A DNA stretch of 63,953 nucleotides, filler included, from an uncultured Methanosarcinales archaeon (GTDB lineage: Archaea; Nanobdellota; Nanobdellia; Woesearchaeales; JAGLXL01), in NCBI GenBank assembly GCA_964472345.1. It is 4 parts of 4 records of this genome, joined end to end, with 100 filler letters (N's around TTAATTAATTAA, not from the genome) between each part and the next. Parts side by side here need not be neighbours in the genome. Positions count along the whole stretch, not along the records: positions 35,830 to 52,416 come from CAYYLB010000022.1; 3 more parts are not named here. One strand, given 5' to 3'. Each line of letters begins with the position of its first letter. Position 1 is the stretch's first letter. Positions 12,003-56,797 of this stretch are shown one piece after another. The notes below the pieces were generated by a model. The model saw only the letters and a list, made by a program, of their open reading frames with translations. It was not told the DNA's origin and ran no database searches. The position numbers and the translations under genes were made by a program.

Positions 12003-13795
12003 AGGCGCGCTATCAGGTAGGGGAGATGAGCGCGGCGGGAGAAGCAGAGAATGCCTCCTTCCTGCTCACGAACGAGGCAGGCTCGTTTTATTACCATAAC
12101 CAGCAGACGAAGTACGGCGGATGGTCGGTGTTTGATGGCGAGCTGTTTCATGTCCTGAGCGAGCTGCGGCTCGCCGCGCCGGCAGTGAGCGGGGTGGTGC
12201 ACCATCTCTCGGTGGTTGACGTCGTGCACGGCGCGCTGCGGGAGCAGTTTGCGGTGCCACGGGGCGAGCGCGCGCTGGTGCATCGGCTGAATGCGGAGAC
12301 GGACATCGGGCTGGTGCTTGACGTGCACAGGCCGTATGACAGCCGTGCGTTTGGGCGTTTCTACCGCGTTGAGGTCGAGGAGGGCAGGACGATCATCACC
12401 TTTGTGAAGAAGACCGACCGGCGGGAGGATCGCACGCACGGCGATGAGGAGTTCGTTTTTTTTGTCGTCGTGAATGCTCCCGGACGCGTGCTTGGGCGGT
12501 GGGAAGAGCGCGTGTACGCGCAGGATGCGTTGCGGAAGGACGCTTCACGGCGCTTTGTGTATCATGCGGCGCGGTTTCATGCCGCGGAGCTGGTGGTGAC
12601 CGCGGGCAGGGACCTGCAGGAAGCGCTGCGCTCGAATGCGAGGATCGCCGCGAATGTGCGGAAAGCGGTTGCGGCGCAGCGCGCGGCTTGCATCCGATTC
12701 GCGCAGCTTCCGCTCGAGGTTGCGGCGGCATCGTGGTCGCTCCAGGGCTTGCGGGCTGCGGCAGCGGCGCCCGCAAGCGCTGACAGGGCTGCGCCGCCTC
12801 CGTGCGTTTGGGCAGGGCTGCCCTGGTTCTTTCAGGAGTGGACGCGGGACGAAGCCGTTGCGCTGAAGGCGCTGATGCTGCTTGGTGAGTTTGACCTGGC
12901 AAAGAGGATAGTGTTCTCATTGCTGGAGCGCATTGATGCGCAAGGGCTTCTGCCGGCGCGGATTCCTGCGGCTGCCGGCGATCTGCGCAGCGCTGACGCG
13001 GTCGGCTGGCTGTTTGTGCGCTGCGGCGAATATCATGCATTGAAAGGGTTCACGAAGGAAGAGAAGTCGCGTGTGGAGGAAGCGCTCGTCCGCGTGCTCG
13101 AGTCGCATGAGCAGCTGCATACGCGCGATGGGCTTGCGTCGCACGGGCCGCAGGAGAGCTGGATGGACACCGCAAGCCGTTCACAGGCGATCGAGCTGCA
13201 GGCGCTGCGCCTTGCGCTCGAGCGTGTCGCATTTCAGCTGACGAAGAATGTCATCTACCGGGAGCGCGGGCAGGCGCTTCGGGAGCGGGTGCGCACGCTG
13301 CTGTGGGACGGGACACAGCTTGCGGACAGTGCTGGCGACGGCACAGCGCGGCCGAACGTATTCCTCGCGGCGTACGCCTATCCTGAGCTGTTGACGAAGA
13401 GGGAATGGAAGCGGTGCTTTTCCGCGGTGCTGCCGAAGCTGTGGCTTGCATGGGGCGGGCTTGCGACAATCGGCCTGAGCGACGCGCGCTTCCGGCAGGA
13501 ATACACAGGCATGGACGATAAGAGCTATCATCACGGCGACAGCTGGTTCTGGGTGAATAATATCGCCGCGCTGGTGATGCACCGGATTGATGCGCGTGGG
13601 TTCAGGGCGTATTGGGCGAAGATCCTGCAGGCCTCAACGCGGGAGCTGCTCTGGTCGGGAGCGCTTGGGCATGCTGCTGAGCTGAGCTCGGCGAAGGAGC
13701 TGCGCAGCGAAGGCTGCGTTTCCCAGGCGTGGAGCGCGGCGACGTTGGTGGAGCTGTGGAATGAGCTGAAGGGGAAACAAGCTCGGAAGGAATAA
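11999..13795 (+). CDS. Amylo-alpha-1,6-glucosidase (glycogen debranching enzyme, GH133-like)
   Basis: AGLPWF..WTRD, SADAVGW, SWMD, YHHGDSW, QAWS motifs. Confidence 0.85.
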   Translation: MKARYQVGEMSAAGEAENASFLLTNEAGSFYYHNQQTKYGGWSVFDGELFHVLSELRLAAPAVSGVVHHLSVVDVVHGALREQFAVPRGERALVHRLNAETDIGLVLDVHRPYDSRAFGRFYRVEVEEGRTIITFVKKTDRREDRTHGDEEFVFFVVVNAPGRVLGRWEERVYAQDALRKDASRRFVYHAARFHAAELVVTAGRDLQEALRSNARIAANVRKAVAAQRAACIRFAQLPLEVAAASWSLQGLRAAAAAPASADRAAPPPCVWAGLPWFFQEWTRDEAVALKALMLLGEFDLAKRIVFSLLERIDAQGLLPARIPAAAGDLRSADAVGWLFVRCGEYHALKGFTKEEKSRVEEALVRVLESHEQLHTRDGLASHGPQESWMDTASRSQAIELQALRLALERVAFQLTKNVIYRERGQALRERVRTLLWDGTQLADSAGDGTARPNVFLAAYAYPELLTKREWKRCFSAVLPKLWLAWGGLATIGLSDARFRQEYTGMDDKSYHHGDSWFWVNNIAALVMHRIDARGFRAYWAKILQASTRELLWSGALGHAAELSSAKELRSEGCVSQAWSAATLVELWNELKGKQARKE

Positions 13796-13906
13796 TGCAA
13801 GCTAAACTCAATAAAGTTGAAGCAATAAACAGTGGAGAGGGCAATTTCTGAAAACAGGCGCCATTCAACAACTTTAATAAAGCAACTGATTCTATGTATG
13901 TTTAAT

Positions 13907-14539
13907 ATGAAGTTTTACTTATCATCTTACAAAATTGGAAACAAAAAAGAAGAGCTGAAAAAATTAGCTCGTGGAAAGAAGCTCGGATTTATCCCAAATT
14001 CTTTAGATTACGTAGAACCTAAAGCAAGAAAAGAAAGCAACGATAAAAACATGAAAGACTTGACTGATCTTGGGATAGATATTGAAATGCTTGACCTAAA
14101 GGATTATTTTGGCAAAAAAGAAGCATTAAAGAAGAAAATCGACAGTCTTGGCGGAGTTTGGATTAGAGGAGGAAATACTTTTGTTTTGCGTCAAGCAATG
14201 AAACTTAGTGGCTTTGATGAAATAATCAAAAACATGGACAGGGACGATTTTCTTTATGGTGGGTGTAGTGCTGGAATATCTGTTCTTGCTCCAAGTCTCA
14301 AGGCACTCCAACAAGTTGATGATCCAACAATCACACCCTACATGGAATCAAAAGATGTAATTTGGGATGGTTTGGGAATCTTAGATTACATAATTTTGCC
14401 ACATTACAAATCAAATCATCCAGAGTCTGCTGATATCGGTAAAGAAGTTGAATTTTGTAAGAAAAATAACATTCCTTTCAAGACTTTAAGAGATGGTGAA
14501 GTAATCGTAATCGAGCGAATGACACTCTTAATGAAATAG
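13907..14539 (+). CDS. Peptidase E (S51) family protein
   Basis: GGNTFVL, GCSAG nucleophile, LPHY; markedly AT-rich. Confidence 0.85.
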   Translation: MKFYLSSYKIGNKKEELKKLARGKKLGFIPNSLDYVEPKARKESNDKNMKDLTDLGIDIEMLDLKDYFGKKEALKKKIDSLGGVWIRGGNTFVLRQAMKLSGFDEIIKNMDRDDFLYGGCSAGISVLAPSLKALQQVDDPTITPYMESKDVIWDGLGILDYIILPHYKSNHPESADIGKEVEFCKKNNIPFKTLRDGEVIVIERMTLLMK

Positions 14540-14625
14540 AATTTGCCCTCTGATGCTTGTTCTTGGTATGTCGCTTTGCTCTTTGAATGGAATGGACTTC
14601 AAATTTACTTTGAATTGGAACCGAG

Positions 14626-15035
14626 CTAGAACAGAGTCAGCCGCAGGCCAGCTTTCCCGGCAACCTGCACGACTGCGGTTTCTACTTCAGGTGTCTCAGC
14701 GAGAATAAGGATTTCTTTGTCATGGTACCCAGCAGCCAGCGCCTCTAACGCAGATCGCTCGAACTGATCGGGGGTGTGCATATCCCTTGGATCAAAGCGC
14801 TCATACGGCCCTCTTGTTCCCGCCATGAACAGCCTATCACCTTTTTTCCAGACGCCAACGACAACCGCGGGAGCCAACGCTTTGGGAAGCCCTTATCACG
14901 GGCGAATTCCTCCAAAACGCTTTGAGGATAAGGCCTCTCATCTTCAAGGCGCAGCGTACATTCATCAAAAAAGCCGTATGCGCCTCGGAAGCGTTGATCA
15001 GCGGTGATATAGATCTGAGCCGAAAAGGTTTTCAT
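14626..15035 (-). pseudogene. Hypothetical gene split over two frames (indel or -1 frameshift)
   Basis: MKTFSAQ... (from 15035) overlaps -1-frame ORF 14626-14877, which has no good start. Confidence 0.45.
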
Positions 15036-18091: not shown

Positions 18092-18191
18092 NNNNNNNNN
18101 NNNNNNNNNNNNNNNNNNNNNNNNNNNNNNNNNNNTTAATTAATTAANNNNNNNNNNNNNNNNNNNNNNNNNNNNNNNNNNNNNNNNNNNN
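18092..18191. other. Artificial contig linker (N-run with TTAATTAATTAA)
   Basis: 100 nt, same design in three places. Confidence 0.97.
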
Positions 18192-26421: not shown

Positions 26422-26741
26422 GAGCCTATCCCATTAGGCGTTTAGCAGCCTAAGGTCGAACGCCTGTGGTTAAACCAGCAAGGGCGTCGCGGGGGGTTGC
26501 CGAGGCTCTGCCGAGCGCAACTAGAGAACGGAGCGAAGCGGAGTGAACGTGGATGCACCCGAGCGGAGCGAGCGGTGTGCCAGCAATCGCGGATTGCTCC
26601 GCACCCCATACGGGAACGGTTCCGGCTTCGCTGGAACTCAGGAACGCAGCGAAGCGGAGTGACCTTACAGCCCAATCTGATTTATGCGGCGAAGCGTTCG
26701 AAGCTGCTAAACGCCCCCGTTTCGTCTATTGGGATAGGCTC
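26422..26741. mobile_element. Nested MITE-like element A
   Basis: Outer TIR GAGCCTATCCCA, TAA on both sides; inner IR GGCGTTTAGCAGC (26437-26449/26703-26715). Confidence 0.82.
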
Positions 26742-26770: not shown

Positions 26771-27013
26771 TCACTTCAGTCCCAGCTCCTCTTTGATATG
26801 CCTCTCGATCACGCGCGACATGTTCAGGCTGTGCCTCTTGCAGTGGCCCCGGAACTTCCGCAGCAGAGCGCCGTCGATCGTGAAGTTGGCGCGCTCGCGG
26901 TAGCTGAGCTTCGGCAGCTTCTTGGTCCGCTCGTACTCGAGCAGCGCTTCGAAGACCTCGGGATGCTCGCGGATGACCTTGTCGATGAGCTCACGCTTAT
27001 TCTTCGATGACAT
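26771..27013 (-). CDS. Putative antitoxin with C-terminal ribbon-helix-helix
   Basis: RANFTID..L...NMSRVIE; overlaps the Doc gene. Confidence 0.65.
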   Translation of the reverse strand: MSSKNKRELIDKVIREHPEVFEALLEYERTKKLPKLSYRERANFTIDGALLRKFRGHCKRHSLNMSRVIERHIKEELGLK

Positions 27014-27332
27014 TTTTTATCACCCGTTCGATGACCTCTGTGTTGGTTGTTTTTTTCTTGATGAGGTGAACCACCGCCTGTGCGACCTTTTCGGGGCGGT
27101 AATGGAAATCATCTGCCTCAAGGTAAAACATGATGACCGCAGCGGCAGTGCGCTTGTTGCCGTCTTCAAAGACGTGGTCGGCAAGGATGGCGCGCACGAG
27201 CAGCGCCGCACACCGAAGCCAGTTCCTGCTCCGCCGCTGGATCTCAATGGCATAATCAAGGCTGCTTTCGTTGCTCAGCCGGCCGTTGTGGAACTGCTGG
27301 TTGATTGCAACGATGTCTTTTTTTGAGAGCAT
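26997..27332 (-). CDS. Fic/Doc family toxin
   Basis: HVFEDGNKRTA Doc-type motif. Confidence 0.85.
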   Translation of the reverse strand: MLSKKDIVAINQQFHNGRLSNESSLDYAIEIQRRSRNWLRCAALLVRAILADHVFEDGNKRTAAAVIMFYLEADDFHYRPEKVAQAVVHLIKKKTTNTEVIERVIKNVIEE

Positions 27333-35586: not shown

Positions 35587-35729
35587 AGTATTTAAAGTTT
35601 CTCCACACATTCTAAATTTTCACCACCGCAGGAGAGTTAAAACTTATAAACTTTTCGCTTCTACGGATGGAAAATGACCAAAACGTCCCACTCTTCGCTG
35701 GTCGGGCAGCCAAGTCTTTAAAAATGGCT

Positions 35730-35829
35730 NNNNNNNNNNNNNNNNNNNNNNNNNNNNNNNNNNNNNNNNNNNNTTAATTAATTAANNNNNNNNNNNNNNN
35801 NNNNNNNNNNNNNNNNNNNNNNNNNNNNN
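35730..35829. other. Artificial contig linker
   Basis: 100-nt N-run with TTAATTAATTAA. Confidence 0.97.
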
Positions 35830-35830
35830 A

Positions 35831-36619: not shown

Positions 36620-36752
36620 GTATTTGTTTAGCACCCTAAGGTCGAAATTCCTTCGGCGCAGATCATCGAGGGCGTCGCGGGGGGACGCCCCATACGGGGA
36701 CGCAGCCCCATCGATGACATGAGCATGAATTTCGAAGGTGCTAAACAAATAC
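36620..36752. mobile_element. MITE C, 133 bp
   Basis: Perfect 16-bp TIR GTATTTGTTTAGCACC; perfect 8-bp TSD AACTATTC (36612-36619/36753-36760). Confidence 0.9.
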
Positions 36753-36930: not shown

Positions 36931-38091
36931 TTATTCCAAAGATTGTTTAGATGCCAAATACTCCAGAAAAAGCGTGTGAAATATCCTATATCTTCCCCTG
37001 TCTGGTTTATCTAATACACCTTTTCTTAATAATTCTTTGATGTAGGGCGAGACGTAATTGCTTGGCATCTTTAACCATTCAACAGCATCTTTAAATGAAA
37101 ATTCTAATGTTTTTGCATTTTTCGCAATCGCAATTATTATTTCTCTGGCTTTGGGGGTTAATGGATGAAACATCGGGGAAAAGAAATCTTGCCCTAATCG
37201 ATAATCAATTTTCTCTTTCGCCCTGAATATGACCTCTTTCGTTATGCGTGCTTCAGCTTCATTCAAAGAATCAAACAGCAAGTAAGAGATTGAAACAAGA
37301 ACATAGGGGTGTCCTTCACTTTTGTCTAATAAGTAGGTTATTGCATCTTCATCTATTGTTACGCTTTGACTCGCAAGTTTTTTTATAATATAACTTCTCA
37401 TCGCATCACGACTTAAAGGAGTCAGTCTCTGGCAAGGAAAAAATCTGTTTAACGGGGAAAAAGATTCGGACATTCTTTCAGTAAAATTAAATTTTCCCGC
37501 TAAAATTACAGAATATTTTGTTTCACTTTCTATGCGCTGGAATACTTCCCTCATAAAGGTTAATATGTCCCCTTTGATTTTTTCAAAAGAATCTGCTTCA
37601 TCAATCAGTAATACGCAACAGGTAAATTCTCCCTGCATTTCTTCCCATAGTTTTATCAGCCGTTGTCTGAATAACTCTTGAACAACTTGGTTTTTTTCTA
37701 TGGATAAACTCACATCATTCCATTCTATAGTTGGTTTTAGAGTTGCCACCCATTGTTGCAATTTATTAAAGGCGTCGCCAAATGGTCTTCTACTCAATAG
37801 TTCTCTTTTTATATTTGAAGAGATATAATCGCAGAATTCTGGTATGTTTGAAATGTTGCCCTCATAATTTGACATTCTTAAAACAAGGGCTCCTTGTGCT
37901 TTTGCAATCTGCTCGAATTTCACAAGCAGGGATGTTTTCCCCATTCCCCTATTCCCCGTAATGACTAGATTCATCGGTGAGCCGTTCCTTGTTTGAATTA
38001 AGACCTTTTCAAACTCTGTTATCTCTGGTTCTCTTCCTACAAAAAAATCAGGTCTTGCTGGTTGGGAAGGATTAAATGGGTTGAACCTCAT
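36931..38091 (-). CDS. AAA-type ATPase with C-terminal wHTH (archaeal ATPase/STAND-like)
   Basis: FVGRE.E, GNRGMGKT, LLIDEAD, SEGHPY; AT-rich. Confidence 0.85.
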   Translation of the reverse strand: MRFNPFNPSQPARPDFFVGREPEITEFEKVLIQTRNGSPMNLVITGNRGMGKTSLLVKFEQIAKAQGALVLRMSNYEGNISNIPEFCDYISSNIKRELLSRRPFGDAFNKLQQWVATLKPTIEWNDVSLSIEKNQVVQELFRQRLIKLWEEMQGEFTCCVLLIDEADSFEKIKGDILTFMREVFQRIESETKYSVILAGKFNFTERMSESFSPLNRFFPCQRLTPLSRDAMRSYIIKKLASQSVTIDEDAITYLLDKSEGHPYVLVSISYLLFDSLNEAEARITKEVIFRAKEKIDYRLGQDFFSPMFHPLTPKAREIIIAIAKNAKTLEFSFKDAVEWLKMPSNYVSPYIKELLRKGVLDKPDRGRYRIFHTLFLEYLASKQSLE

Positions 38092-38346
38092 AGGAAAGTA
38101 AAAAGTATATTTGATATATAAATATTTGCATATTCTTCTAACTTAAACCTTTTTATAAAAAGATAAAATGTATGGTTAGTATAGAAATATTTATATACTT
38201 TGCATATTTTTTATCTCTTCGTGAGAAGATGGATAAAAAAGCAATCCGAAGCGAGGGAGCAGTGGACTAGGTCGCTGCAATCCCCACAAGCGACAGAAGG
38301 TGAGAAAAAAGCTAAAAGTCCCACAGAACAGAAAGCGCCTGCAATC

Positions 38347-38563: not shown

Positions 38564-38636
38564 AATCGAAGCGTTTAAATAAGCAAGGAGTGTGCCTGCC
38601 ATTATGGCTGAGATGAGCGAGGAGCAGCGCCGTGCG
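38564..38636 (+). repeat. 73-bp direct repeat copy 1 (promoter + first 11 codons of HIT gene)
   Basis: 72/73 identical to 39425-39497. Confidence 0.93.
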
Positions 38637-39424: not shown

Positions 39425-39497
39425 AATCGAAGCGTTTAAATAAGCAAGGAGTGTGTCTGCCATTATGGCTGAGATGAGCGAGGAGCAGCGCCGTGCG
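39425..39497 (+). repeat. 73-bp direct repeat copy 2
   Basis: See 38564-38636. Confidence 0.93.
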
Positions 39498-40211
39498 CTC
39501 ATGGAGAAGCTCAAGGGAATGAATCCCGAGGAGCTGCGGGAGTTCCAGAAGAAGCAGTGCATTTTCTGCCAGATTGTCGCGGGCAAGATGCAGGCCAAGA
39601 AGCTCTATGAGGACGAGCGCAGCATCGCGATCCTTGATATCAACCCCGCGGCGCTCGGCCATGTGCTGCTGCTGCCCAAGGAGCATTATGCCATCATGCC
39701 GCAGGTGCCGGAGCAGGACATCGGCCATCTCGGCATCGTCGCGAAGCACCTGTCGCGCGTGCTGCTCAAGGCGCTCAAAGCGCAGGGAACGACGGTGTTC
39801 ATCGCAAACGGCCTTGCCGCCGGGCAGCGGGCGCAGCACCTGATGATCCATATCATCCCTCGGACAGAGAATGACCAGCTCGGCATCACCGTGCCGCAGC
39901 GGCAGATGGATGACAATCAGCTCGCGCAGCTTCAGGAAGCGCTGCTCGCCCAGGTCAACAAGCTCTTTGGCATCAGGAAAGAGATGGTGAAGGAGAAGCA
40001 GCCGGCGGCTGGCGTCGGGGAGCAGCCGGGAGCGGCAGGCGGGCAGCAGGAGCGGCCGGAGAGCGCCGCAGGGCAGCAGCACACAGGCAGGCCTGCCAGG
40101 ACAGGGCGAAAAGCGCCTGCAAAGGAAAAGAAGCGGCTTGCGGAGGAGCGCGAGAAGCGGAAGAAGCCGGCCGACGTGAGCCTGGACGACATTGCGGGGC
40201 TGTTCTCATGA
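39465..40211 (+). CDS. HIT family protein (degenerate triad)
   Basis: CIFCQI, DINP...GHVLLLPKEH, AGQ..QHLMIHIIPR. Confidence 0.88.
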   Translation: MAEMSEEQRRALMEKLKGMNPEELREFQKKQCIFCQIVAGKMQAKKLYEDERSIAILDINPAALGHVLLLPKEHYAIMPQVPEQDIGHLGIVAKHLSRVLLKALKAQGTTVFIANGLAAGQRAQHLMIHIIPRTENDQLGITVPQRQMDDNQLAQLQEALLAQVNKLFGIRKEMVKEKQPAAGVGEQPGAAGGQQERPESAAGQQHTGRPARTGRKAPAKEKKRLAEEREKRKKPADVSLDDIAGLFS

Positions 40212-40750
40212 GCAGCTGCGAGTTCTGCGGGATAGCCGCCGGCACGCTTGAGGGTGATGAGCTGTATCACGATGACAAGCTCCTTGCGGTCCTCCATCGC
40301 AAGCCTGCAGCTCCCGGGCACATCCTCCTCTTCACGCTCGGGCATTTTCCCATCATGGAGCAGGTCCCTGATCCGGTCATTGCGCATGCGTTCGTCGTTG
40401 CGAACAAGCTGAGCATTGCGCTGTTCGAGACGCTCAACGCGCAGGGCAGCAATGTGATCATCGAGAATGGAATCCCTGCCGGCCAGACGATCCCGCATTT
40501 CGCGCTGCACATCATACCCCGCGCCGAGCAGGATGGCCTGCGGCTGGAATGGCAGCCGAAGAAGTACAGCGACGATGAGATGGACATCGCGCTCGCGCAG
40601 GTCAAGGAGCAGGCGGAAGGCATCAGCCCCGGCGCGTTCGAGACGGAACGGAAAGAGGTCGTGCTCGCTGAGCCGGAGCCGCCGGAAGAGAAACCGCCGC
40701 AGAAGAAAGGCCGCGATTACCGGCTTCGGCAGCTGAGGAGAATACCTTAG
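40208..40750 (+). CDS. HIT family protein (degenerate triad)
   Basis: CEFC, PGHILL, AGQTIPHFALHIIPR. Confidence 0.88.
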   Translation: MSSCEFCGIAAGTLEGDELYHDDKLLAVLHRKPAAPGHILLFTLGHFPIMEQVPDPVIAHAFVVANKLSIALFETLNAQGSNVIIENGIPAGQTIPHFALHIIPRAEQDGLRLEWQPKKYSDDEMDIALAQVKEQAEGISPGAFETERKEVVLAEPEPPEEKPPQKKGRDYRLRQLRRIP

Positions 40751-42362
40751 AGCCTGCCCACGTGGCGTTTAGCAGCCTAAGGTCGAACGCCTGCGATTAA
40801 AATAATTCTAATTGAGTCCGATATATATCTGATAAAAACATAATTGACGGTTTGATATCTCCATCTTTGGACTGCCTCAAAGCGTTATAATATTTATGCT
40901 TCTCATCATTATAGATGATTACCGGAAAAAAAGCATGCTTAATCAATATAAAATTTAAGAGCAATCTCGAGACTCTGCCGTTGCCATCAGAGAAAGGGTG
41001 AATATACACAAATTGATTATGAAAAATGCCTGCTAGTACAAAAGGGTGTAGTTTCTTCTCATTCTCCGAATACCATTTTATAAGATCTTTTAGCCTCTCA
41101 TCTACAAATTGCATTGGCGTTGTAGTATCCACGAGCGTGCCATTAGAATCTATAATACAATTTTCCTCTAGTTTGTAACTACCGGCATTCTCATCAATTC
41201 CTTGTTGGGTTATCAAGTGAAGCTGCTTGATGAACTCTAAAGTAAGTTCATGAGCCGTATCAAAGATATTTTCAACAGCTTTTTTCGAGTTCTCTGTTTC
41301 CAATATATCTTTTTTTTCCTTTTTTATCCCTTCCCACCCTTTCGTAAGTCCAGTAGTTACTTCTTCAAAAGTAAGAGCATTTCCTTCTATCTTATCTGTG
41401 TTGTAGACATATTTTATTTTCCATTCATTTATTTTTTTAGTTATTTCAAATGGATTAGTAAATCTCTTTAGCTTTTCTTTGGTTAAGATATCCAGAATAG
41501 CGGTTTCGGTCGATTCAATATTCTTTAGTTTATTTAAGATAAAATCTTTCCCTTCAAGATAATATTGCATATTCAGCTTTGCTAGTTCCTGCTGTTTGTC
41601 ATCGAAAAGATTTGCCTGTTTCCCAGTAAAAGCGGAATATGATTTAATAATATAATTTTTGAATGCATCTTCATCAAACTTAAGTTTGATATCAAAAAAC
41701 TCCAGTAATTTTTTTACCGGTTCTTCCCAAGAACGAATGAAATAAACGTCGCTGTTGCCTTCTCTTGTTGCGTGGATAATCCTTGTTTTTCTAGCAATAT
41801 CTCTGATTTTTTTTAGATTATGCTGCGGGAGTTGAGAGGCTTTCAGCAATGGGTTGGTGCTAAATCTTTCTAATATTCGCTGGGTATGGATGCTGAACAG
41901 GATATCTGCATTACTACCAAACAAATTCAACAGAAATTTTATGATTTTTACTTTTCCATTGTTCTCGTTTAATTTGTATGTCCCTCGGCTCTCTTTAGCC
42001 AGAAAATTTTTTTCTTCTAGTTTTCTTAAGTAAGGGTAAACCCCTTCTCTAAACTTTAGGTTTAGAAGCGCAGCTAACTCATCTGGGCTAAAAACCAGTT
42101 TATTAATTCTGCATATTTTTATTAATAATTGTATTTCTTTATTCATATCTTATGTTAAAAAGTATTAACTATTTATAAATGTTTGTATTATCTATTAGTA
42201 AATTAATACTTTAATTAATACGGTAGCCCGGATTAAACAGCAAGGGCGGCGCGGGGGGGTTGCCGATCGAAGCGGGCGCAACGAGAGAACGGAGCGAAGC
42301 GGAGTGACCATACAGCCCCATCAGCGATTCCCTCATGAATTTCGAATGTGCTAAACAAATAC
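40750..42362. mobile_element. Element B: hybrid MITE carrying a Fic gene
   Basis: Left arm matches A (30 bp identical); right arm 42231-42362 matches the rest of A and ends in the C-type TIR; GATTAAA at both cargo junctions. Confidence 0.75.
40797..42146 (-). CDS. Fic family protein with N-terminal wHTH
   Basis: HPFSDGNGRVSR canonical Fic motif; TDKIEGN; AT-rich. Confidence 0.92.
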   Translation of the reverse strand: MNKEIQLLIKICRINKLVFSPDELAALLNLKFREGVYPYLRKLEEKNFLAKESRGTYKLNENNGKVKIIKFLLNLFGSNADILFSIHTQRILERFSTNPLLKASQLPQHNLKKIRDIARKTRIIHATREGNSDVYFIRSWEEPVKKLLEFFDIKLKFDEDAFKNYIIKSYSAFTGKQANLFDDKQQELAKLNMQYYLEGKDFILNKLKNIESTETAILDILTKEKLKRFTNPFEITKKINEWKIKYVYNTDKIEGNALTFEEVTTGLTKGWEGIKKEKKDILETENSKKAVENIFDTAHELTLEFIKQLHLITQQGIDENAGSYKLEENCIIDSNGTLVDTTTPMQFVDERLKDLIKWYSENEKKLHPFVLAGIFHNQFVYIHPFSDGNGRVSRLLLNFILIKHAFFPVIIYNDEKHKYYNALRQSKDGDIKPSIMFLSDIYRTQLELF

Positions 42363-42394
42363 CCTTAATCCACCTTGGCCGGGCCTCCCGCGGA

Positions 42395-43249
42395 TTATAT
42401 CCCGCCGTATCCTGTCAGTATCAGCGCCGCCAGCGCAATCAGGAAGCTCGGCACGAAGGGGATGCCGTTCCGGAGCACGACGCGGGAGAGCTTCTTCTGC
42501 CGGTAGAGCCTCTTGAGCAGGGCGATCTGCTCCCTGCTCAGCCCCGGCTCGCTGGCGCGCGCGACGCGCTTTCCCTTTACGACAACATCCTCCGCGAGCC
42601 AGTCGCCTTCCGTCAGCTGCGCCGGCCGCACGGCCTTGCGCAGCGCCGCATCCTCGACCGATCTCACCAGTCCGAGCAGGTAGAAGAGCGCGACGGGCAT
42701 GATGACCAGCAGCAGGAGCAGGAGCCGCAGCGATGCGTCGCTGGTGAGCAGGAGCGCGAGCAGGAGCACGCCGCTGGCGATGAAGGTGGCGTTCCTGATC
42801 GCCTGGGCGCGCCTGGTGAAGGCGCCAAAATGGTTCGCGACGCCGCGTGCGTTTCTCACGGCAAGCACGAGCAGCCAGCAGAGGCCGTACGCGGCGCCTG
42901 CGAGCATGAGGAGGGCGAAGAACACGGCAAGCGGCGGCGGGGGAAAGAGCCTGAAGTCCAGGCCGATGGCTGCCCCGAGGCCCATGAGCAGCTTGCTGTC
43001 GCCGCCCCCCCACTGGTGCGTGTAATACATAAGGTAGGCGATGGCCACGAAGACGGCGAAGCCCGCAAGGCCGCGCAGCAGGATGCTCCCGTCGGGTTCT
43101 CCGAGCGAGAAGAGCGCACGGATGCCCAGCGCCGAGAAGATGAGCCCGTAGCTGAGCCAGTCAGGGACTTCGCGGGTTTTAAGGTCGGTGTAGGAGGCGG
43201 CGAGCAGGGCGGCAAGGGCGACGCCATACAGTACGAGCTCGAGCAGCAT
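42395..43249 (-). CDS. Prepilin peptidase (A24)
   Basis: TDLKTREVPD, GGGDSKLL, IPFVP. Confidence 0.9.
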   Translation of the reverse strand: MLLELVLYGVALAALLAASYTDLKTREVPDWLSYGLIFSALGIRALFSLGEPDGSILLRGLAGFAVFVAIAYLMYYTHQWGGGDSKLLMGLGAAIGLDFRLFPPPPLAVFFALLMLAGAAYGLCWLLVLAVRNARGVANHFGAFTRRAQAIRNATFIASGVLLLALLLTSDASLRLLLLLLVIMPVALFYLLGLVRSVEDAALRKAVRPAQLTEGDWLAEDVVVKGKRVARASEPGLSREQIALLKRLYRQKKLSRVVLRNGIPFVPSFLIALAALILTGYGGI

Positions 43250-44589: not shown

Positions 44590-44678
44590 GCCTTTTGCCG
44601 TCCAATGCGGGGTTCACTCCGCTTGGCGCCGCTTGGGAATCGAAGCGTTTATAAATGAGTGGGAAGCTCTCGCCGCTT

Positions 44679-45221
44679 ATGGTCAATGCGCTGGAAGTCG
44701 ATGCCACGGAGCTCATCGAGCGGGCGGCGAAGCTGCTTGAGGAGCACCAGCCCGTGAAGCCGCCGGCCTGGGCAGGATTCGCCAAAACCGGGCGGCATAA
44801 GGAGCGGCCGCCGGCGCATGACGGCTGGTGGCATATCCGCGCCGCTGCCGTGCTGCGGAGCGCCTACAAGCTTGGTCCCATCGGCACGAGCAAGCTGCGC
44901 ACCAAGTACGGCGGACGCAAGAGCCGCGGCTACAAGCCTGAGCATTTCTACAAAGGCAGCGGAGCCGTCATCAGGAAGGTGCTGCAGCAGCTTGAGCAGG
45001 CAGGGTTATTGCTCACGGTCACCAAGGGGGTCCACAAGGGCAGGAAAATCACTGATAAGGGCAAGTCTCTGCTCGACAAGATCGCAGCACAGATGATCAA
45101 GGAGGGGCCGCGCCAGCGCAGCCGGGCGATTGAGCTCGTGACAGTGAAGGCGGAGCCTGCCGCGCCGGGCGGGAACCCTGAACTCTCGCCCAAAGGAGAG
45201 CGGATCCGGAAAAAGCAATGA
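44679..45221 (+). CDS. rps19e: 30S ribosomal protein S19e
   Basis: PPAWA.FAKTG.HKERPP..WW.IRAA. Confidence 0.96.
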   Translation: MVNALEVDATELIERAAKLLEEHQPVKPPAWAGFAKTGRHKERPPAHDGWWHIRAAAVLRSAYKLGPIGTSKLRTKYGGRKSRGYKPEHFYKGSGAVIRKVLQQLEQAGLLLTVTKGVHKGRKITDKGKSLLDKIAAQMIKEGPRQRSRAIELVTVKAEPAAPGGNPELSPKGERIRKKQ

Positions 45222-52416: not shown

Positions 52417-52516
52417 NNNNNNNNNNNNNNNNNNNNNNNNNNNNNNNNNNNNNNNNNNNNTTAATTAATTAANNNNNNNNNNNNNNNNNNNNNNNNNNNN
52501 NNNNNNNNNNNNNNNN
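52417..52516. other. Artificial contig linker
   Basis: 100-nt N-run with TTAATTAATTAA. Confidence 0.97.
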
Positions 52517-52517
52517 G

Positions 52518-52976
52518 TTAATTAAGCAGAAAAAGTCTGGGAATCAGATCAACTATTTCTTGGATTACTCACAAGAAGAACTCATACCCTCCCTGAACAC
52601 TGTTGAACATTCAAGATTTGAGAGGCTTCCTGCAAAGGTAAGACTGTCCGTAAACGATTTTTTAAAAGAATTGGAAGTGAAGCCAATAATTGCTGTTATT
52701 TTTGGTTCTTACGCAGTCGGTTCTTATATGAAGAACTCAGACATTGACATTTTGTTAGTTTTTCAGAAAATTGAAGATTCCAAGAAGATTGAAGATACTG
52801 CAAAGAAAATGAGCATGAAAACGAATACGCAATTAAACCCCGTTTATCTTAATTATCAGGAATTCAAAGAATCGTTTCATGATCCAACCAAAGAATTTTT
52901 CAAAAAGCTTAAGAAAGACAAGATGATTTTGATTGGGATTGAGTGGTGGAGGCAATTGACTGATGAAGAGGCCTGA
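52518..52976 (+). CDS. Minimal nucleotidyltransferase (5' truncated by gap)
   Basis: IFGSYA.G...SDIDI. Confidence 0.85.
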   Translation, partial: LIKQKKSGNQINYFLDYSQEELIPSLNTVEHSRFERLPAKVRLSVNDFLKELEVKPIIAVIFGSYAVGSYMKNSDIDILLVFQKIEDSKKIEDTAKKMSMKTNTQLNPVYLNYQEFKESFHDPTKEFFKKLKKDKMILIGIEWWRQLTDEEA

Positions 52977-53505
52977 TTGGAAGCTCTGGTTAAAAAATGA
53001 GAAAGAATGCAAGTTTTGGCTAGATAGTTACATCAGAAAAAATATTCTTAAGAAAAGTTCTGATGAATCGAGATTATATCTAAGAAGAACAGACCATAAC
53101 CTGATTTTTGCCAATTGGATCATGGAAAAGCACAAAGATGAAATTCCAGAAGTTTTTGGAGGAGATAATTTTTATGATTGGGTGATTAATATCTATTATT
53201 ATGCAATCTATCATGCTGCCCTTGCTCTTATGAGTAAAGAGGGATTCACGTCTAAAAATCATTCCGCTACACTTGCTTTTCTGATTTACCACCACTATTA
53301 TTCGCAGAAAGCGCTGGAGAAGGAAGATGTTGAGTTAATCGCTAGTTCTTTGGATAGAGAAGACATTGAGACTCTCGGTGTCTCGAAAGAATTGAGAGAA
53401 AAAGCTTGTTATGATGTTCATGAATCTTTTGAGAAGAGATTAGCTGAACAGATAAGGGAAGAGGCAGTTGACTTTGCTAACAAGATAAAATTGTTGTTGA
53501 AATAG
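52963..53505 (+). CDS. HEPN domain protein
   Basis: YYAIYHAALAL, SKNH, LREKACY. Confidence 0.82.
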   Translation: MKRPDWKLWLKNEKECKFWLDSYIRKNILKKSSDESRLYLRRTDHNLIFANWIMEKHKDEIPEVFGGDNFYDWVINIYYYAIYHAALALMSKEGFTSKNHSATLAFLIYHHYYSQKALEKEDVELIASSLDREDIETLGVSKELREKACYDVHESFEKRLAEQIREEAVDFANKIKLLLK

Positions 53506-53507
53506 AC

Positions 53508-54254
53508 CTATTTTTCTTTGCAGTTATCCCACATGAACTGAAAGAATTTTCTGTATCCATCAGCCAAAAGCTTACTCTTGAGAATAAATTGTAAAGGTTC
53601 TTCATATAATTCTCCTGGCTTTACACCCACAAAGGTAACGACATAATCTCCAAAAATATCTACTGCTGTTGCACTGGAGTATTCTTTAGGCAAGAATTTA
53701 TAGGGCTTTCCCACTAATTTTAGAATTTCCGGCTTTTTTTCTTTTACTTCGTAATCAAATAAGTGCATAAATTCAATTCCTCGCTTTTTTCTCTCTTCGT
53801 CAAAGTGTCTTAGGTAGTGTTTAAGCCGGGGGTCAAGCCAGAAAGCTTTGGCACCGATGAAATAGACTGTTTGCTTTTGTTCTAGGATTAATTGGAGATA
53901 ATTTTTGAAACCCTCCACACCTTGAAAGAAATATGCTTCTGCATCTGGCTCTACGAATTTATAGAGCTTTTTCATTTCTGGGAGCAAAGTATCTAACGCT
54001 GATTCTTTTTCTTTGATGATTTCTTTCAGTCGTTCAGGATTAATGGCTTTAAACCGCCTCTCACCTTTGACGAATGTCTCAGAAGCGAGACCTTTCTCAA
54101 TGAGCTTATTGAGAGAGTCATAGACGTTTCTGCGATGGACTTTTGATTTAACAGAAATCTTATTTACATTGACCTCTCCCAGATGCAGTAAGGCCTCGTA
54201 AACCCTGGCTTCATTAAGCGAAAGCCCGGTTTTTTGCAGTATTTCTTGGTACAT
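53508..54254 (-). CDS. TrmB family transcriptional regulator
   Basis: GLSLNEARVYEALL, RRNVYDSLNKLIEKGL. Confidence 0.88.
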   Translation of the reverse strand: MYQEILQKTGLSLNEARVYEALLHLGEVNVNKISVKSKVHRRNVYDSLNKLIEKGLASETFVKGERRFKAINPERLKEIIKEKESALDTLLPEMKKLYKFVEPDAEAYFFQGVEGFKNYLQLILEQKQTVYFIGAKAFWLDPRLKHYLRHFDEERKKRGIEFMHLFDYEVKEKKPEILKLVGKPYKFLPKEYSSATAVDIFGDYVVTFVGVKPGELYEEPLQFILKSKLLADGYRKFFQFMWDNCKEK

Positions 54255-54300
54255 TGCTAGTGGGGGTTATTTGGGTGTATTATAAACTTTTCGTTTTGAG

Positions 54301-54317
54301 GTGGTGTTTGCCACCAC
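54301..54317. promoter_or_regulatory. Candidate operator GTGGTG-N5-CACCAC between divergent TATA boxes
   Basis: Perfect 6-bp inverted repeat between the TrmB gene and the divergent operon. Confidence 0.45.
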
Positions 54318-54384
54318 AAAGATTTATATGCTTGCCTTTGTAACTACCTGTAAGTTAAAACAAATTACTGAGGAAGCGATAAAA

Positions 54385-55128
54385 ATGAAACAACCACAAA
54401 ATGGGGGGTATCAGGACTTTACCTCATTATTGGCTGGGGAAAGAGTGCATTTGCCCTACTCAGGAGACCATACAAACCCACCATATCGACCAGGAGCTTC
54501 TAGTAGTGTCCATGGGTATGATATTGGTGGAACTTTAGCTAGTGCTGAAAATAGAGATACTGTGATAAGGGGTATTCTCGGTCTTGAAGCTAATGCTGAT
54601 ATTAAAAGTTTATTATTTGTTGATCCCGATGCCACAAGGAGAATTTCAAGTGCACAAGAAGAAGGAATCCAAACTGGAAGGATTAAGGTTGATGTTTTAG
54701 ATGGTGTTGTTGAACAACTTAGGGAGGAAAGAGCTAGAGGAGAAGATGGAACATTAATTACAGCAGGAACTTATCAAATGGCTCGTAGCTTTATCTATGG
54801 TGCCGGTCTTGAAGATTATGTAACAACTTTAACAACTTCAGAAGAAGCAGGAGCAGGTAATCAAAAGACAGTAGAAATGTTTCTCAAAGTGTATGAAAGA
54901 TTAATTGAAAAAGGTAAGTCTATGGAAACTTATTGTGATGACTCAGAAAATGGGGCTAAAGTGGCAGTTGAAGCCAGCAGGATCGTTGAAAAGAAATCTG
55001 GTCCTGGTTTTACTGTTTTCCTTGTTAAAAGAGATGCACTCGACGAAGAATTGGGGCCAAGCAGGGACGGTTATATTGTCGTGCGTTCAATAAGGGATAA
55101 AAATAAATTTAGGGGGGTTCAAAGATGA
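54385..55128 (+). CDS. HAD-like hydrolase fold protein
   Basis: YDIGGTL (motif I-like), ITAG, QK, YCDDS. Confidence 0.55.
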   Translation: MKQPQNGGYQDFTSLLAGERVHLPYSGDHTNPPYRPGASSSVHGYDIGGTLASAENRDTVIRGILGLEANADIKSLLFVDPDATRRISSAQEEGIQTGRIKVDVLDGVVEQLREERARGEDGTLITAGTYQMARSFIYGAGLEDYVTTLTTSEEAGAGNQKTVEMFLKVYERLIEKGKSMETYCDDSENGAKVAVEASRIVEKKSGPGFTVFLVKRDALDEELGPSRDGYIVVRSIRDKNKFRGVQR

Positions 55129-56567
55129 ATACTCCTCATTGGCAACATCTGATAACCAGAAGGTTAGCAGTCCAGGTTGCAATTGCATGGAATTATGGAT
55201 TAGGTATTCTCTTTAATAAAAGATATCGAACAGGGATATACAACACGTTAGTTTATTACGATGGCAAAAAGACAGATTATTTTGTTGATGGAGATGAGCT
55301 TAAAAAACACAATGAAGATCTCGATCGGTTATTGGATAATCCTGAATGTGTGGCAGGACTTATTCCTGAAGCTAAAGAGTTTGTTGAAGAAACGTATGAA
55401 TTTATTAAAGAATTGATAACTGATGTGCATATATTATCTAATAAGGAGTTATCTGCATTATTTTCTCAGTTTTCACACCACCACATGAATTACTATACTC
55501 GAATGTGGATGGTTTTCAGAATCTGTGAGAGAATCATCTTAAAGGTTGAATCAATGCTAAAAGAAAATATTGAAGATGAAAATGAGGTAAAAGAACTCTC
55601 AAGAGTGTTCTCGATTCCGTTGAAACCAAATGACGTTACGAATGAAAGAATGGATTTATTGAGAATTGCTCAAAGAAGGAGTGAATTAGGTGATGATGAA
55701 ATGAAAACTCTTCTGCATAAACACACTCAAAAATATAGACATATCCCTATGTTTGATTTTGACCATGAGCCATACACTTTCGAGCATTTTGCAAGTGAGC
55801 TTGGCTCGGCAGAGAAACCTCACGAAGAGTTGGAAAAGATCGAATCATCCTTCAAAGAAAGAAAAAAAGAATCTGAGGCTCTGCTCAAGAAACTAAATCC
55901 AAAGGCAGAGTTAACAAATTTAATCATTATGTTGAAGAAAGCAGTTTTCTTAAGAGATTATAGGGATATGATTAGACAAAAACTGAACCTTGTCGTAATG
56001 GAATTTTATCAGGAAATTGGCTCAAGAATTGGATTAAATGTTAAAGAAGTTGCTTTACTTACAAACGAGGAAATTGAAAAATATTTGCTTGACCCCTTAC
56101 AATGTGATAAAGATGAGATTGAAAGACGAAAAAAGTCTTTTTTACTTGTTCAGTTAAATGACAAGATTGAAATATATTCTGGGGAAGAATCTTACAAGAA
56201 AGCTAAGGAATTAAATTTGTATAATGTTGCTGAGGATGTTAATTTAATCAAAGGGAGATCAGCTTCTCCAGGAAAAAAACGAGGAATTGCCAAAATAGTC
56301 TATACAAATCTTGATTTTGGTAAGTTAAATGATGGGGACATCTTAATTGCTGCCATGACTAGACAAGATTTTGTTCCAGTAATGAGGCGAGTATCTGCGA
56401 TTGTTACTAATGAAGGAGGTGTTACGTCACACGCAGCGATCATTGCACGAGAGTTAGGACTGCCATGTATTGTAGGTACGGAGGTCGCCACCGAAGTTCT
56501 GAAGGACGGAGATTTAATTGAAGTTGATGCGACAAATGGAGTAGTGAGAAAGCTGAAGCAGAATTAA
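55125..56567 (+). CDS. PEP-utilising enzyme mobile (phospho-His swivel) domain protein
   Basis: GRSASPG, GDILIA.MT, GGVTSHAAIIARELG.PC; no nucleotide-binding domain recognised. Confidence 0.85.
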   Translation: MNTPHWQHLITRRLAVQVAIAWNYGLGILFNKRYRTGIYNTLVYYDGKKTDYFVDGDELKKHNEDLDRLLDNPECVAGLIPEAKEFVEETYEFIKELITDVHILSNKELSALFSQFSHHHMNYYTRMWMVFRICERIILKVESMLKENIEDENEVKELSRVFSIPLKPNDVTNERMDLLRIAQRRSELGDDEMKTLLHKHTQKYRHIPMFDFDHEPYTFEHFASELGSAEKPHEELEKIESSFKERKKESEALLKKLNPKAELTNLIIMLKKAVFLRDYRDMIRQKLNLVVMEFYQEIGSRIGLNVKEVALLTNEEIEKYLLDPLQCDKDEIERRKKSFLLVQLNDKIEIYSGEESYKKAKELNLYNVAEDVNLIKGRSASPGKKRGIAKIVYTNLDFGKLNDGDILIAAMTRQDFVPVMRRVSAIVTNEGGVTSHAAIIARELGLPCIVGTEVATEVLKDGDLIEVDATNGVVRKLKQN

Positions 56568-56797
56568 TTTTTTATCCCCGCCGGTTTTTTTTCGTTTAGC
56601 CCCCTGACTTCTGAGATTTTACTTCCAGATTTCCCCGATTCGGTTAGTTAAAGAAGAGGGTGCTTATTACCCTATCTATCGTTGCCCTCTTCAGCGGACA
56701 TAAGCTGTACTGCTTCGCAGATGACGGCGCCGACAGCAGCTTTTCTGCCAAGCCTGTCGGGCAAACCTTTTTATAGTCTCCGAGCCTCCGGCCACCC

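Follow-up and report, generated by a model that had tools for sequence, protein, structure and literature searches.

Introduction

Several systems are known in which genes come to lie between or within repeat elements. Mobile insertion cassettes (MICs) are composed of inverted repeats of the insertion sequence (IS) type that surround passenger genes, without a transposase, as in MIC231 of Bacillus cereus. Pack-MULEs (Mutator-like elements) and the plant elements resembling MITEs (miniature inverted-repeat transposable elements) capture gene fragments of the same genome. Integron cassettes are mostly promoterless. Illegitimate integration has been described as homology-facilitated illegitimate recombination and by the template-switch models of fork stalling and template switching (FoSTeS) and microhomology-mediated break-induced replication (MMBIR). 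Here we describe a locus at which an AT-rich gene encoding a Fic-domain protein interrupts a MITE. It is located in a 63,953-nt stretch of DNA (called here the window) of assembly GCA_964472345.1, deposited as an uncultured Methanosarcinales archaeon and placed by GTDB in the Woesearchaeales.

The qnrS2 cassette of Aeromonas plasmids provides a further example of a MIC (PMC5444012). Integrons occur in archaeal metagenome-assembled genomes (MAGs), including those of Nanoarchaeota, and attC sites count as an array when two or more of them are separated by less than 4 kb (Ghaly et al. 2022, PMC9668308). Repetitive extragenic palindromic (REP) sequences, or palindromic units, serve as sites into which IS elements, for example IS1397, insert (PMC1525189). 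A census reported that MITEs are dense in some DPANN genomes, and the words 'cargo' and 'passenger' do not occur in its main text (PMC11602168). Searches for studies of DPANN MITEs and of insertion cassettes, supplements aside, did not bring up any account of genes being captured at a loop inside an archaeal MITE, which is no proof of absence.

Results

The window is composed of four contigs joined by linkers of the form N...TTAATTAATTAA...N at 18092-18191, 35729-35830 and 52417-52516; adjacency across these linkers is meaningless. The Fic locus belongs to contig C22 (window position = C22 position + 35829) of a 1.26-Mb, 120-contig MAG with 57% GC and a completeness rated 100%. At this locus, the two arms of a MITE are separated by an AT-rich insert of 1,429 bp (40802..42230, minus strand), similar to locus L044 of another genome of the same order, G313. 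The left arm (40764..40801, plus strand) ends with the heptamer GATTAAA (40795-40801), and the right arm (42231..42362, plus strand) begins with a second copy of it (42231..42237, plus strand), which is either a target duplication or a junction microhomology. The Fic gene (40797..42146, minus strand) encodes a protein of 449 aa with a Pfam Fic match at residues 301-401 (5.7e-19). Its TAA stop codon (40797-40799) falls within the left GATTAAA and an upstream region of 84 nt (42147..42230, minus strand), also seen in the L044 alignment, lies between its ATG and the right GATTAAA. Fic is the sole long open reading frame (ORF) between the two arms and no transposase is found inside; the GC content is 0.34 in 41001-42000 compared to about 0.6 in the surroundings. 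All coordinates of the original prediction, according to which a Fic gene with about 85 bp of upstream DNA is bordered by GATTAAA on both sides and has its stop codon in the left copy, were confirmed.

The left arm is identical at 30 of 30 positions (40764-40793) to element A (26437-26466), a resident empty A-type element (26422..26741, plus strand) that is located on a different contig (C21), contains a nested 116-nt module and displays the site TGGTTAAACCA (GGTTAAA, 26468-26474). A 32-nt left-arm pattern matched twice in the window whereas 0.00 matches were expected from 100 shuffles. The right arm starts with A-type-like internal modules (repeat families D4, D5 and D13), which are 85% (42238-42263 compared to 26476-26501) and 94% (42273-42307 compared to 26512-26546) identical to element A, and ends with a C-type inverted repeat (42334-42362). 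These last 29 nt are 97% identical to the end (36724-36752) of a complete 133-nt C-type MITE (36620..36752, plus strand) flanked by the 8-bp duplication AACTATTC, which was used as the reference for this end. In an alignment to a MITE profile built from five complete 133-nt C-type MITEs, positions 7-38 were covered by the left arm and positions 42-133 by the right arm. Since the arms adjoin in the profile, they form one element interrupted at one point. The C-type elements themselves are bona fide MITEs, being short, non-coding and multicopy with terminal inverted repeats and target duplications: among the eight full copies read, six are flanked by exact 8-bp duplications, one by a pair matching at 7 of 8 positions and one by none, and further partial copies were found by nhmmer. 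No Rfam family reached the gathering score across the whole window.

Empty versions of the site exist outside the host genome. An exact 18-nt pattern scan of two large collections returned 10 loci, six of which proved to be chance matches in unrelated GC-rich contigs. The four true A-type copies are located on metagenome contigs with 37-49% GC (L022 and L023) and in a Nanoarchaeota archaeon MAG (L026 and L029). Three of these four (L023, L026 and L029) contain the empty site GCCTGCGATTAAACAGCAAGGGCG, which has a single GATTAAA, positioned exactly where the two arms meet. At the Fic locus, the corresponding sequence is GCCTGCGATTAAA-(1,429 bp)-GATTAAACAGCAAGGGCG, and the arms joined with one GATTAAA give the empty-site sequence. 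These results demonstrate that the Fic gene was inserted inside a single MITE, at a defined point, and that 7 bp are duplicated there, in agreement with the original prediction. It should be noted that a shared heptamer is common in itself. When the stop region of AT-rich ORFs was compared to the 150 nt upstream of the ORF, at least a 7-mer was shared in 7 of 25 real pairs, no better than in mismatched control pairs (215 of 600), so that no general duplication signature was detected at other AT-rich genes. The GATTAAA repeat is significant because the empty copies elsewhere hold it once at the joint.

The junctions were recovered in assemblies of groundwater metagenomes, in which DNA of the host organism is present. 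Logan contigs of run X1 covered 40200-41014 and 41036-42305 without difference, with depths that were alike on both sides (6.1, 8.0 and 5.8), and contigs of run X3 bridged both junctions. Run X5, from a different study, contains a strain about 3.5% divergent in Fic, and one of its contigs extends from 40771 into the gene, bridging the left junction with 31 nt on the arm. As X1 may be the source sample, it is X5 that constitutes independent support. The Fic locus is not an assembly chimera. One joint (40801 to 42276) considered as an empty allele was ruled out, as its letters are those of the paralogous element A. In run X5, over window positions 40335-42900, the Fic contigs were about 3.3% different and the contigs of the native flanking genes 5.5-8% different, these contigs being short and unlinked; the lower divergence of Fic could reflect a later spread of the cargo or a stronger constraint.

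Fic-domain genes are widespread in the order, with matches at E <= 1e-10 in 226 of the 401 sampled genomes (a tally that takes in four genomes flagged as unpublished, on which no other result depends). A full-length homologue with 90% protein identity was identified at L044 in G313, which belongs to another family and has a locus GC of 0.36; among the 11 genomes of that family, only G313 contains the Fic gene. The cargo and L044 are 85.5% identical at the DNA level over 1,425 nt (40796-42220), that is over the whole cargo and its promoter region and nothing beyond. In G313, the gene is flanked by ordinary AT-rich genes without a MITE alongside. At the left joint, the homology to G313 begins at ATTAAAA, which contains the TAA stop, and the homology to the MITE runs to 40801, resulting in a 6-nt overlap (ATTAAA) between flanks that are otherwise dissimilar. 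At the right joint, the donor-like homology fades at about 42213-42220, and the following 10 nt (42221-42230, CGGTAGCCCG) match neither L044 nor the MITE. No informative second copy of this filler (GGTAGCCCGG) was found in the host genome. A TATA-like sequence, TTTATAAATA (42171-42180), is located 25-34 nt ahead of the Fic ATG in a region that is conserved at L044, suggesting that the 84-nt upstream region acts as a promoter. Judged by these sequence comparisons, the cargo is a horizontally acquired chromosomal fragment that comprises a single gene together with its TATA-like box and stems from an AT-rich archaeon of the same order; it is not a promoterless cassette.

The ancestral state of the locus could be read in relatives. 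In three genomes of the same family (G005, G006 and G004, loci with 37-44% GC), the order HIT1, HIT2, convergent A24 peptidase and UppS is kept, and the gap between HIT2 and the peptidase gene is about 30-70 nt compared to 1,644 nt, occupied by the MITE and Fic, in the host genome. The short spacer in the three relatives indicates that the MITE-plus-Fic block is derived in the host lineage.

The Fic domain scored 69.2 bits against PF02661 (cut-off 24), and the translation contains the active-site motif HPFSDGNGR (HPFSDGNGRVSR) as well as a TDKIEG motif, the N-terminal 240 aa being without a Pfam match. The former corresponds to the Fic motif HxFx(D/E)GNGRxxR, and the latter to a motif of the inhibitory-helix type. 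PADLOC reported PDC-S04 (1.5e-35) and SoFic (8.5e-31), the SoFic match being limited to the Fic-domain half (residues 246-446), and the protein did not reach the cut-off of the NCBIfam SoFic equivalog NF046030 (38.9 bits, cut-off 550). It is an intact and probably auto-inhibited enzyme of the AMP-transferase type, a kind listed among candidate defence genes, and may act in defence.

Three copies of the A-type left arm are present in the host genome: empty on C21, loaded with Fic on C22 and loaded with a second gene on C99. The C99 copy reads ...GAACGCCTGCGAGTAAA|GAAGAAAATC... and continues into AT-rich DNA encoding the C-terminal part of a PepE-like peptidase S51 on the same strand as Fic; the last 55 nt of C99 overlap exactly with the beginning of C44, on which the N-terminal part is encoded. 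This arm carries GAGTAAA; with GATTAAA in its place, an in-frame TAA would stop the peptidase ORF as in Fic, whereas the ORF as read extends 12 codons into the left arm. At the other border no right arm is present: 70 nt with a TATA-like box are followed by a complete D-type palindromic element. The same arm position has thus been used twice, and the peptidase locus is not a clean copy of the Fic locus. The expectation of other cargo at the same position held once, for the left arm, the right border being different. The second cargo is a dipeptidase-type gene and not a defence gene; the suggested bias to defence genes is not supported, one cargo of the two (Fic) being defence-like. Searches for a peptidase donor gave best DNA matches of 67-71% identity in 4 of the 401 genomes, the host genome included, and the borders could not be mapped. 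Two repeats were observed around this locus. A 53-nt direct repeat with 3 mismatches (C99:2246-2300 and C44:590-645) encloses, in addition to the arm and the D-type element, the peptidase gene and a small gene of the ribbon-helix-helix-like type, and a 12/15-nt repeat, AGTAAAGAA(GAA)AAT (C99:2683-2697 and C44:~437-448), brackets the peptidase ORF itself. These repeats may reflect a Campbell-type integration of an allelic fragment or the assembly of strain variants.

No further loaded copy was found in any collection searched. In 41 close relatives only the host genome matched; in the 401 genomes of the order, arm-like DNA was present in 7 and none of the two candidates scored per genome was loaded; none of the four copies of genome G041 was loaded; and no gene-sized insert was present in 12 additional left arms from the family of G041, of which 101 genomes were sampled and 23 contain the MITE family. 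Viral contigs gave 0 matches to the arm motif. Four right-arm-only matches that had been considered as loaded copies proved to be complete MITEs of other subtypes. Overall, 2 of 21 copies are loaded (three copies in the host genome, four in G041, two in metagenomes and 12 in the family sample), both in the GC-rich host, and none of the 18 copies outside the host genome has a gene-sized cargo, contrary to the idea of a general capture platform.

The 12 further left arms differ in the sequence between the conserved CG and ACAGC, which reads for example TTAA, CTTTG, TAGGT, TACGA or TTCCG. This variation of the loop is not the behaviour of a recombinase core, and the conserved recombination core that had been predicted is a hypervariable loop across the MITE family. 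Folded as single-stranded DNA, the empty element forms a long hairpin (-47.5 kcal/mol, z = -7.2) with GATTAAACA as the loop that closes a side stem of 3 bp. The GC-rich part of the host genome (1.08 Mb) contains ATTAAA/TTTAAT only 107 times and GATTAAA/TTTAATC 26 times. Several loci (L089, L104, L102, L083 and others) carry MITEs whose terminal repeats are quite unlike one another, and which in some cases have duplications of 10-11 bp, but which have one conserved central hairpin in common (GCGTYRCGRGGGG...CCCTACGGGAACGC). This modular superfamily is present in AT-rich and GC-rich archaeal hosts alike and is without an Rfam match.

The original prediction compared the locus to integron cassettes, while stating that neither a full attC site nor IntI was seen, and both of these absences were borne out. 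In the host genome, only one protein matched PF00589, namely XerA (NF040815, 263.5 bits, cut-off 220) on contig C36, and both integron-integrase models remained below their cut-offs (TIGR02249, 208.6 versus 265; NF011946, 152.3 versus 435), which speaks against integron-like machinery. A regular-expression scan of both Fic flanks found no RYYYAAC/GTTRRRY core pair 40-160 nt apart on either strand, and the scan of element A gave only one palindromic site. The GTTRRRY motif proposed for the empty site is present in the resident empty copy (GTTAAAC) and absent from the loaded and other empty copies, which read ATTAAAC. There is no array of at least two attC sites less than 4 kb apart; each element has one cargo and the loaded elements are on different contigs. 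Besides XerA, the search for tyrosine or HUH recombinases yielded one IS200/IS605 TnpA, on C75. No TnpB zinc ribbon and no DDE_Tnp_1, the sole DDE family searched, were found in the host genome. Mobilisation of the cargo by HUH or TnpB proteins was ruled out, as the cargo is collinear with the native locus and without element ends. The Y1 transposase on C75 (923-1282, minus strand) has native GC and lies between REP-like hairpins (CTGCGGG..CCCGCAG), of which further copies are present on C54, C29, C36, C8 and C76; it resembles a REP/RAYT arrangement, its score against the RAYT model being below cut-off.

At its outer borders, the Fic element is flanked by two convergent native genes. HIT2 (40208..40750, plus strand; Pfam HIT, 6.5e-17) is a GC-rich HIT-family gene whose TAG stop (40748-40750) is made of the flanking TA and the first G of the repeat element, and an A24 prepilin-peptidase gene (42395..43249, minus strand; Pfam Peptidase_A24, 1.3e-14) lies on the other side. 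Comparison with the complete D-type copies on C60, C44 and C21 identified an outer D-type inverted-repeat end (GAGCCTGCCCA..., 40750..40763, plus strand) ahead of the left arm, the matching D-type right end being absent. Both ends of the Fic element have the core GTTTAGCA and differ in subtype, A/D-type on the left and C-type on the right, so that the element is a hybrid, as had been proposed. The pentamer CCTTA is found directly outside both ends (40745-40749 and 42363..42367, plus strand), compared to family duplications of 8 bp for C-type and TAA/TTA for D-type elements. This pair may be a flanking duplication of the whole composite, although a 5-nt repeat that is neither the 8-bp nor the 3-bp type of the two ends is weak evidence. 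No Fic-MITE unit was found elsewhere: it is single-copy in its own genome and was not detected in the 401 genomes of the order, the 101 of another family or the viral contigs. The D-type palindromic elements (ends GAGCCTATCCC...GGGATAGGCTC) have TAA or TTA flanks and often sit on stop codons; they were observed at 40745-40763 of the window, C60:7503-7590, C44:505-592, C21:8231/8550 and C1:45613.

AT-rich DNA makes up about 10% of the host genome (140 stretches, 130,535 nt, mostly gene-sized). For most of the 31 AT-rich ORFs listed, the GC content switches at the stop codon or a few nt from it. As this switch is general in the host genome, the tight trimming of the Fic cargo is no mark of a cassette system. 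Within the window, AT-rich islands occupy 13700-14735, 36931-38215, 40802-42230 and 52517-56600; most comprise a single gene with the switch at its stop codon, and among their products are a second peptidase S51, an AAA/STAND-like ATPase that has a winged helix-turn-helix at its C-terminal end, a TrmB regulator, a HEPN protein and a protein with a PEP-utilising domain.

Further features of the window were recorded. A 73-nt direct repeat, 99% identical (38564-38636 and 39425-39497), provides the TATA-like region, the start codon and about the first 12 codons (M-P/S-AIMAEMSEEQRRA) of two unrelated genes, SDR (38592..) and HIT1 (39453..), and looks like a portable promoter-plus-leader module. About 250 nt to the right of element A, a native-GC ORF of 111 aa (26771-27332, minus strand) of the Doc type (Fic/DOC family, HVFEDGNKR) overlaps an 80-aa partner ORF, with which it probably forms a toxin-antitoxin pair. 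The ORF at 44655-45221, judged by eye, looks like a putative ribosomal protein S19e. The gene content, which also includes the A24 prepilin peptidase and XerA, is that of a small archaeon.

Discussion

Gene uptake in tiny, host-dependent DPANN archaea is poorly known, and the Fic locus gives a rare before-and-after picture at the nucleotide level, in which the spacer in its ancestral state, the target both empty and loaded (the latter with its duplication) and a native locus resembling the donor can all be read. With about even confidence, we propose that foreign AT-rich DNA was integrated into the unpaired AT-rich loop of a neutral MITE by microhomology-driven illegitimate integration. A GC-rich MITE in the short spacer between two convergent native genes would have taken Fic via short homology, no dedicated recombinase being needed, and the entry point would be GATTAAA, a small AT-rich loop that stays unpaired at the side of the MITE's long hairpin. 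If a fork stalled or the DNA broke at this hairpin, an AT-rich 3' end would be exposed, which could pair with the ATTAAA of incoming AT-rich DNA and copy or join it, and a return at the same 7-mer would leave the duplication. This could occur either by replication template switching at the hairpin or by microhomology end joining at a staggered break; the 10 unmatched nt at the right joint would be filler-like, as in end joining. Selection and a deletion bias would then retain only the gene and its promoter. In a compact 57%-GC genome with spacers of about 30 nt, few sites could take 1.4 kb, and the loop would be among the few AT-rich patches that tolerate interruption. A shortage of harmless AT-rich patches would explain why a second MITE copy took the peptidase S51 gene at the same place. 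We infer the enzymology of the joining, the selection for such a 'safe harbour' and the order of events. More generally, the locus suggests that MITEs may be harmless docking places whose exposed AT-rich loops accept AT-rich foreign genes in a compact GC-rich genome.

Several points weigh against this proposal. There are only two loaded copies, both in one MAG. Their left junctions are separated by 0-5 nt and have the same orientation, and in both the reading frame places TAA (Fic) or TAC, one base from TAA (peptidase), at the same point; this is tidier than random end joining predicts, although frame and orientation together would agree by chance about 1 time in 6. A staggered cut by an enzyme is likewise compatible with the exact duplication of 7 bp. 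The peptidase locus has no right arm and abuts a complete D-type element, so its history differs. As the best donor-like relative is only 85% identical, the exact right joint cannot be placed, and the 10 nt found there match neither partner. Finally, the predicted circular or empty forms were not seen in the Logan contigs of four groundwater runs, contigs that cannot show rare forms.

A different course of events, which we consider unlikely, is that the gene was captured in a MITE elsewhere, possibly in another host, and that the MITE and its passenger were then transposed in trans, as a unit, into the spacer between HIT2 and the A24 peptidase gene, in the manner of a MIC, by the transposase that mobilises the empty MITEs. 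This concerns the mode of arrival and is compatible with any capture mechanism, including the illegitimate integration favoured here. The absence of the whole 1,644-nt block from the spacer of three family relatives and the CCTTA directly outside both ends agree with it, although this 5-bp repeat is neither the 8 bp of the C-type nor the TAA/TTA of the D-type. The Fic site variant CGATTAAAC matches L023, L026 and L029 and not the resident empty copy (TGGTTAAACC), and the MITE family is also present in AT-rich hosts (L022 and L023, 37-49% GC; 23 of 101 genomes of another family). C-type copies do transpose, with exact duplications at 6 of 8 full copies, but the Fic-bearing element has ends of different subtypes (D/A-type left, C-type right) and is single-copy in the genome. 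DDE_Tnp_1, the only DDE family searched, was not found, nor was a loaded copy in any other genome examined.

It is improbable, in our view, that a dedicated site-specific capture system, integron-like or of the Xer type, was involved, in which a recombinase would insert circularised cassettes in a fixed orientation at the folded MITE loop. We nevertheless retain a small probability for it because the two cargos, although unrelated, have the same arm position, orientation and frame, with the stop codon at the joint. Such a system would also account for the exact repeat of 7 bp that borders the Fic cargo on either side and for the position of the site in a single-stranded loop beside a subterminal hairpin; GTTAAAC in the resident empty copy fits GTTRRRY, XerA is present, and integrons exist in archaeal MAGs, including those of Nanoarchaeota (PMC9668308). 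However, the integrase models scored below their cut-offs, the Fic locus has no RYYYAAC...GTTRRRY pair, and the ATTAAAC of the loaded and other empty copies fails GTTRRRY. The cassette is single and not part of an array, and the cargo has its own promoter and matches the native locus of a relative only to 6 nt into the site. In addition, the loop is hypervariable among copies, the peptidase cargo lacks a matching right joint, and 0 of 18 copies in other genomes are loaded. There is likewise only a slim chance that the side loop is a true attachment site at which a host enzyme, XerA or an unrecognised nuclease acting on the folded strand, would insert circularised, promoter-bearing single-gene cassettes of neighbouring archaea in one fixed orientation, with the stop codon at the joint. 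If so, the MITE copies would be a dispersed, self-multiplying capture platform, an analogue of integrons without IntI or attC in DPANN archaea, and an enzymatically targeted loop would represent a new kind of gene-capture system.

It is very improbable that there was no real interruption, the arms being truncated MITEs that were inserted independently next to an island already present, or the contig an assembly chimera: host MITEs do favour AT-rich targets (their duplications include TCTTTTTT, TCAAAAAC, CTTTTTTC and TAA/TTA), MITE ends adjoin other AT-rich genes (C8:25674, C56, C60 and C1:45613) and the genome is a 120-contig MAG, but this alternative is largely refuted by arms that abut at consecutive profile positions (38 and 42) and restore the exact empty-site sequence of three copies elsewhere, and by contigs from the runs of two studies that bridge the junctions, with like depths in X1.

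The Fic locus can be compared to each of the systems described above. Like Pack-MULEs, it has host gene sequence between transposon ends, but its cargo is an intact foreign gene with a promoter. Like REP targets, the MITEs would be small intergenic palindromes that act as preferred, harmless landing sites with entry at a loop; IS1397, however, has its own transposase, whereas the Fic cargo is ordinary chromosomal DNA that lacks both a mobility gene and inverted repeats. The likeness to integron cassettes lies in a trimmed single-gene unit by a hairpin-forming repeat, a 7-nt repeat at both borders and one orientation. Unlike such cassettes, the Fic locus is without IntI, an attC core pair or an array, has its own promoter and uses a site that is not conserved, GTTRRRY being found in one copy only.

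The few shared nt at the joint, the unmatched filler, the short target duplication and the absence of a recombinase are those of illegitimate integration, from which the locus differs in that the same few MITE nt were used twice and that in each case the insertion ends at the stop codon of the gene brought in. As in MICs, MITE-type ends surround one passenger gene without a transposase, and the empty versions are MITEs with target duplications. The Fic element differs from MICs in having ends of two subtypes, no proper composite target duplication and a single copy, and its host is a DPANN-type archaeon. Moreover, its passenger is inserted at an internal loop with its own 7-bp duplication, which makes the capture step visible. 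Passenger genes between MITE-type ends, palindromes as IS targets and archaeal integrons are all known already, and the Fic locus may be regarded, from its sequence, as a variant of these.

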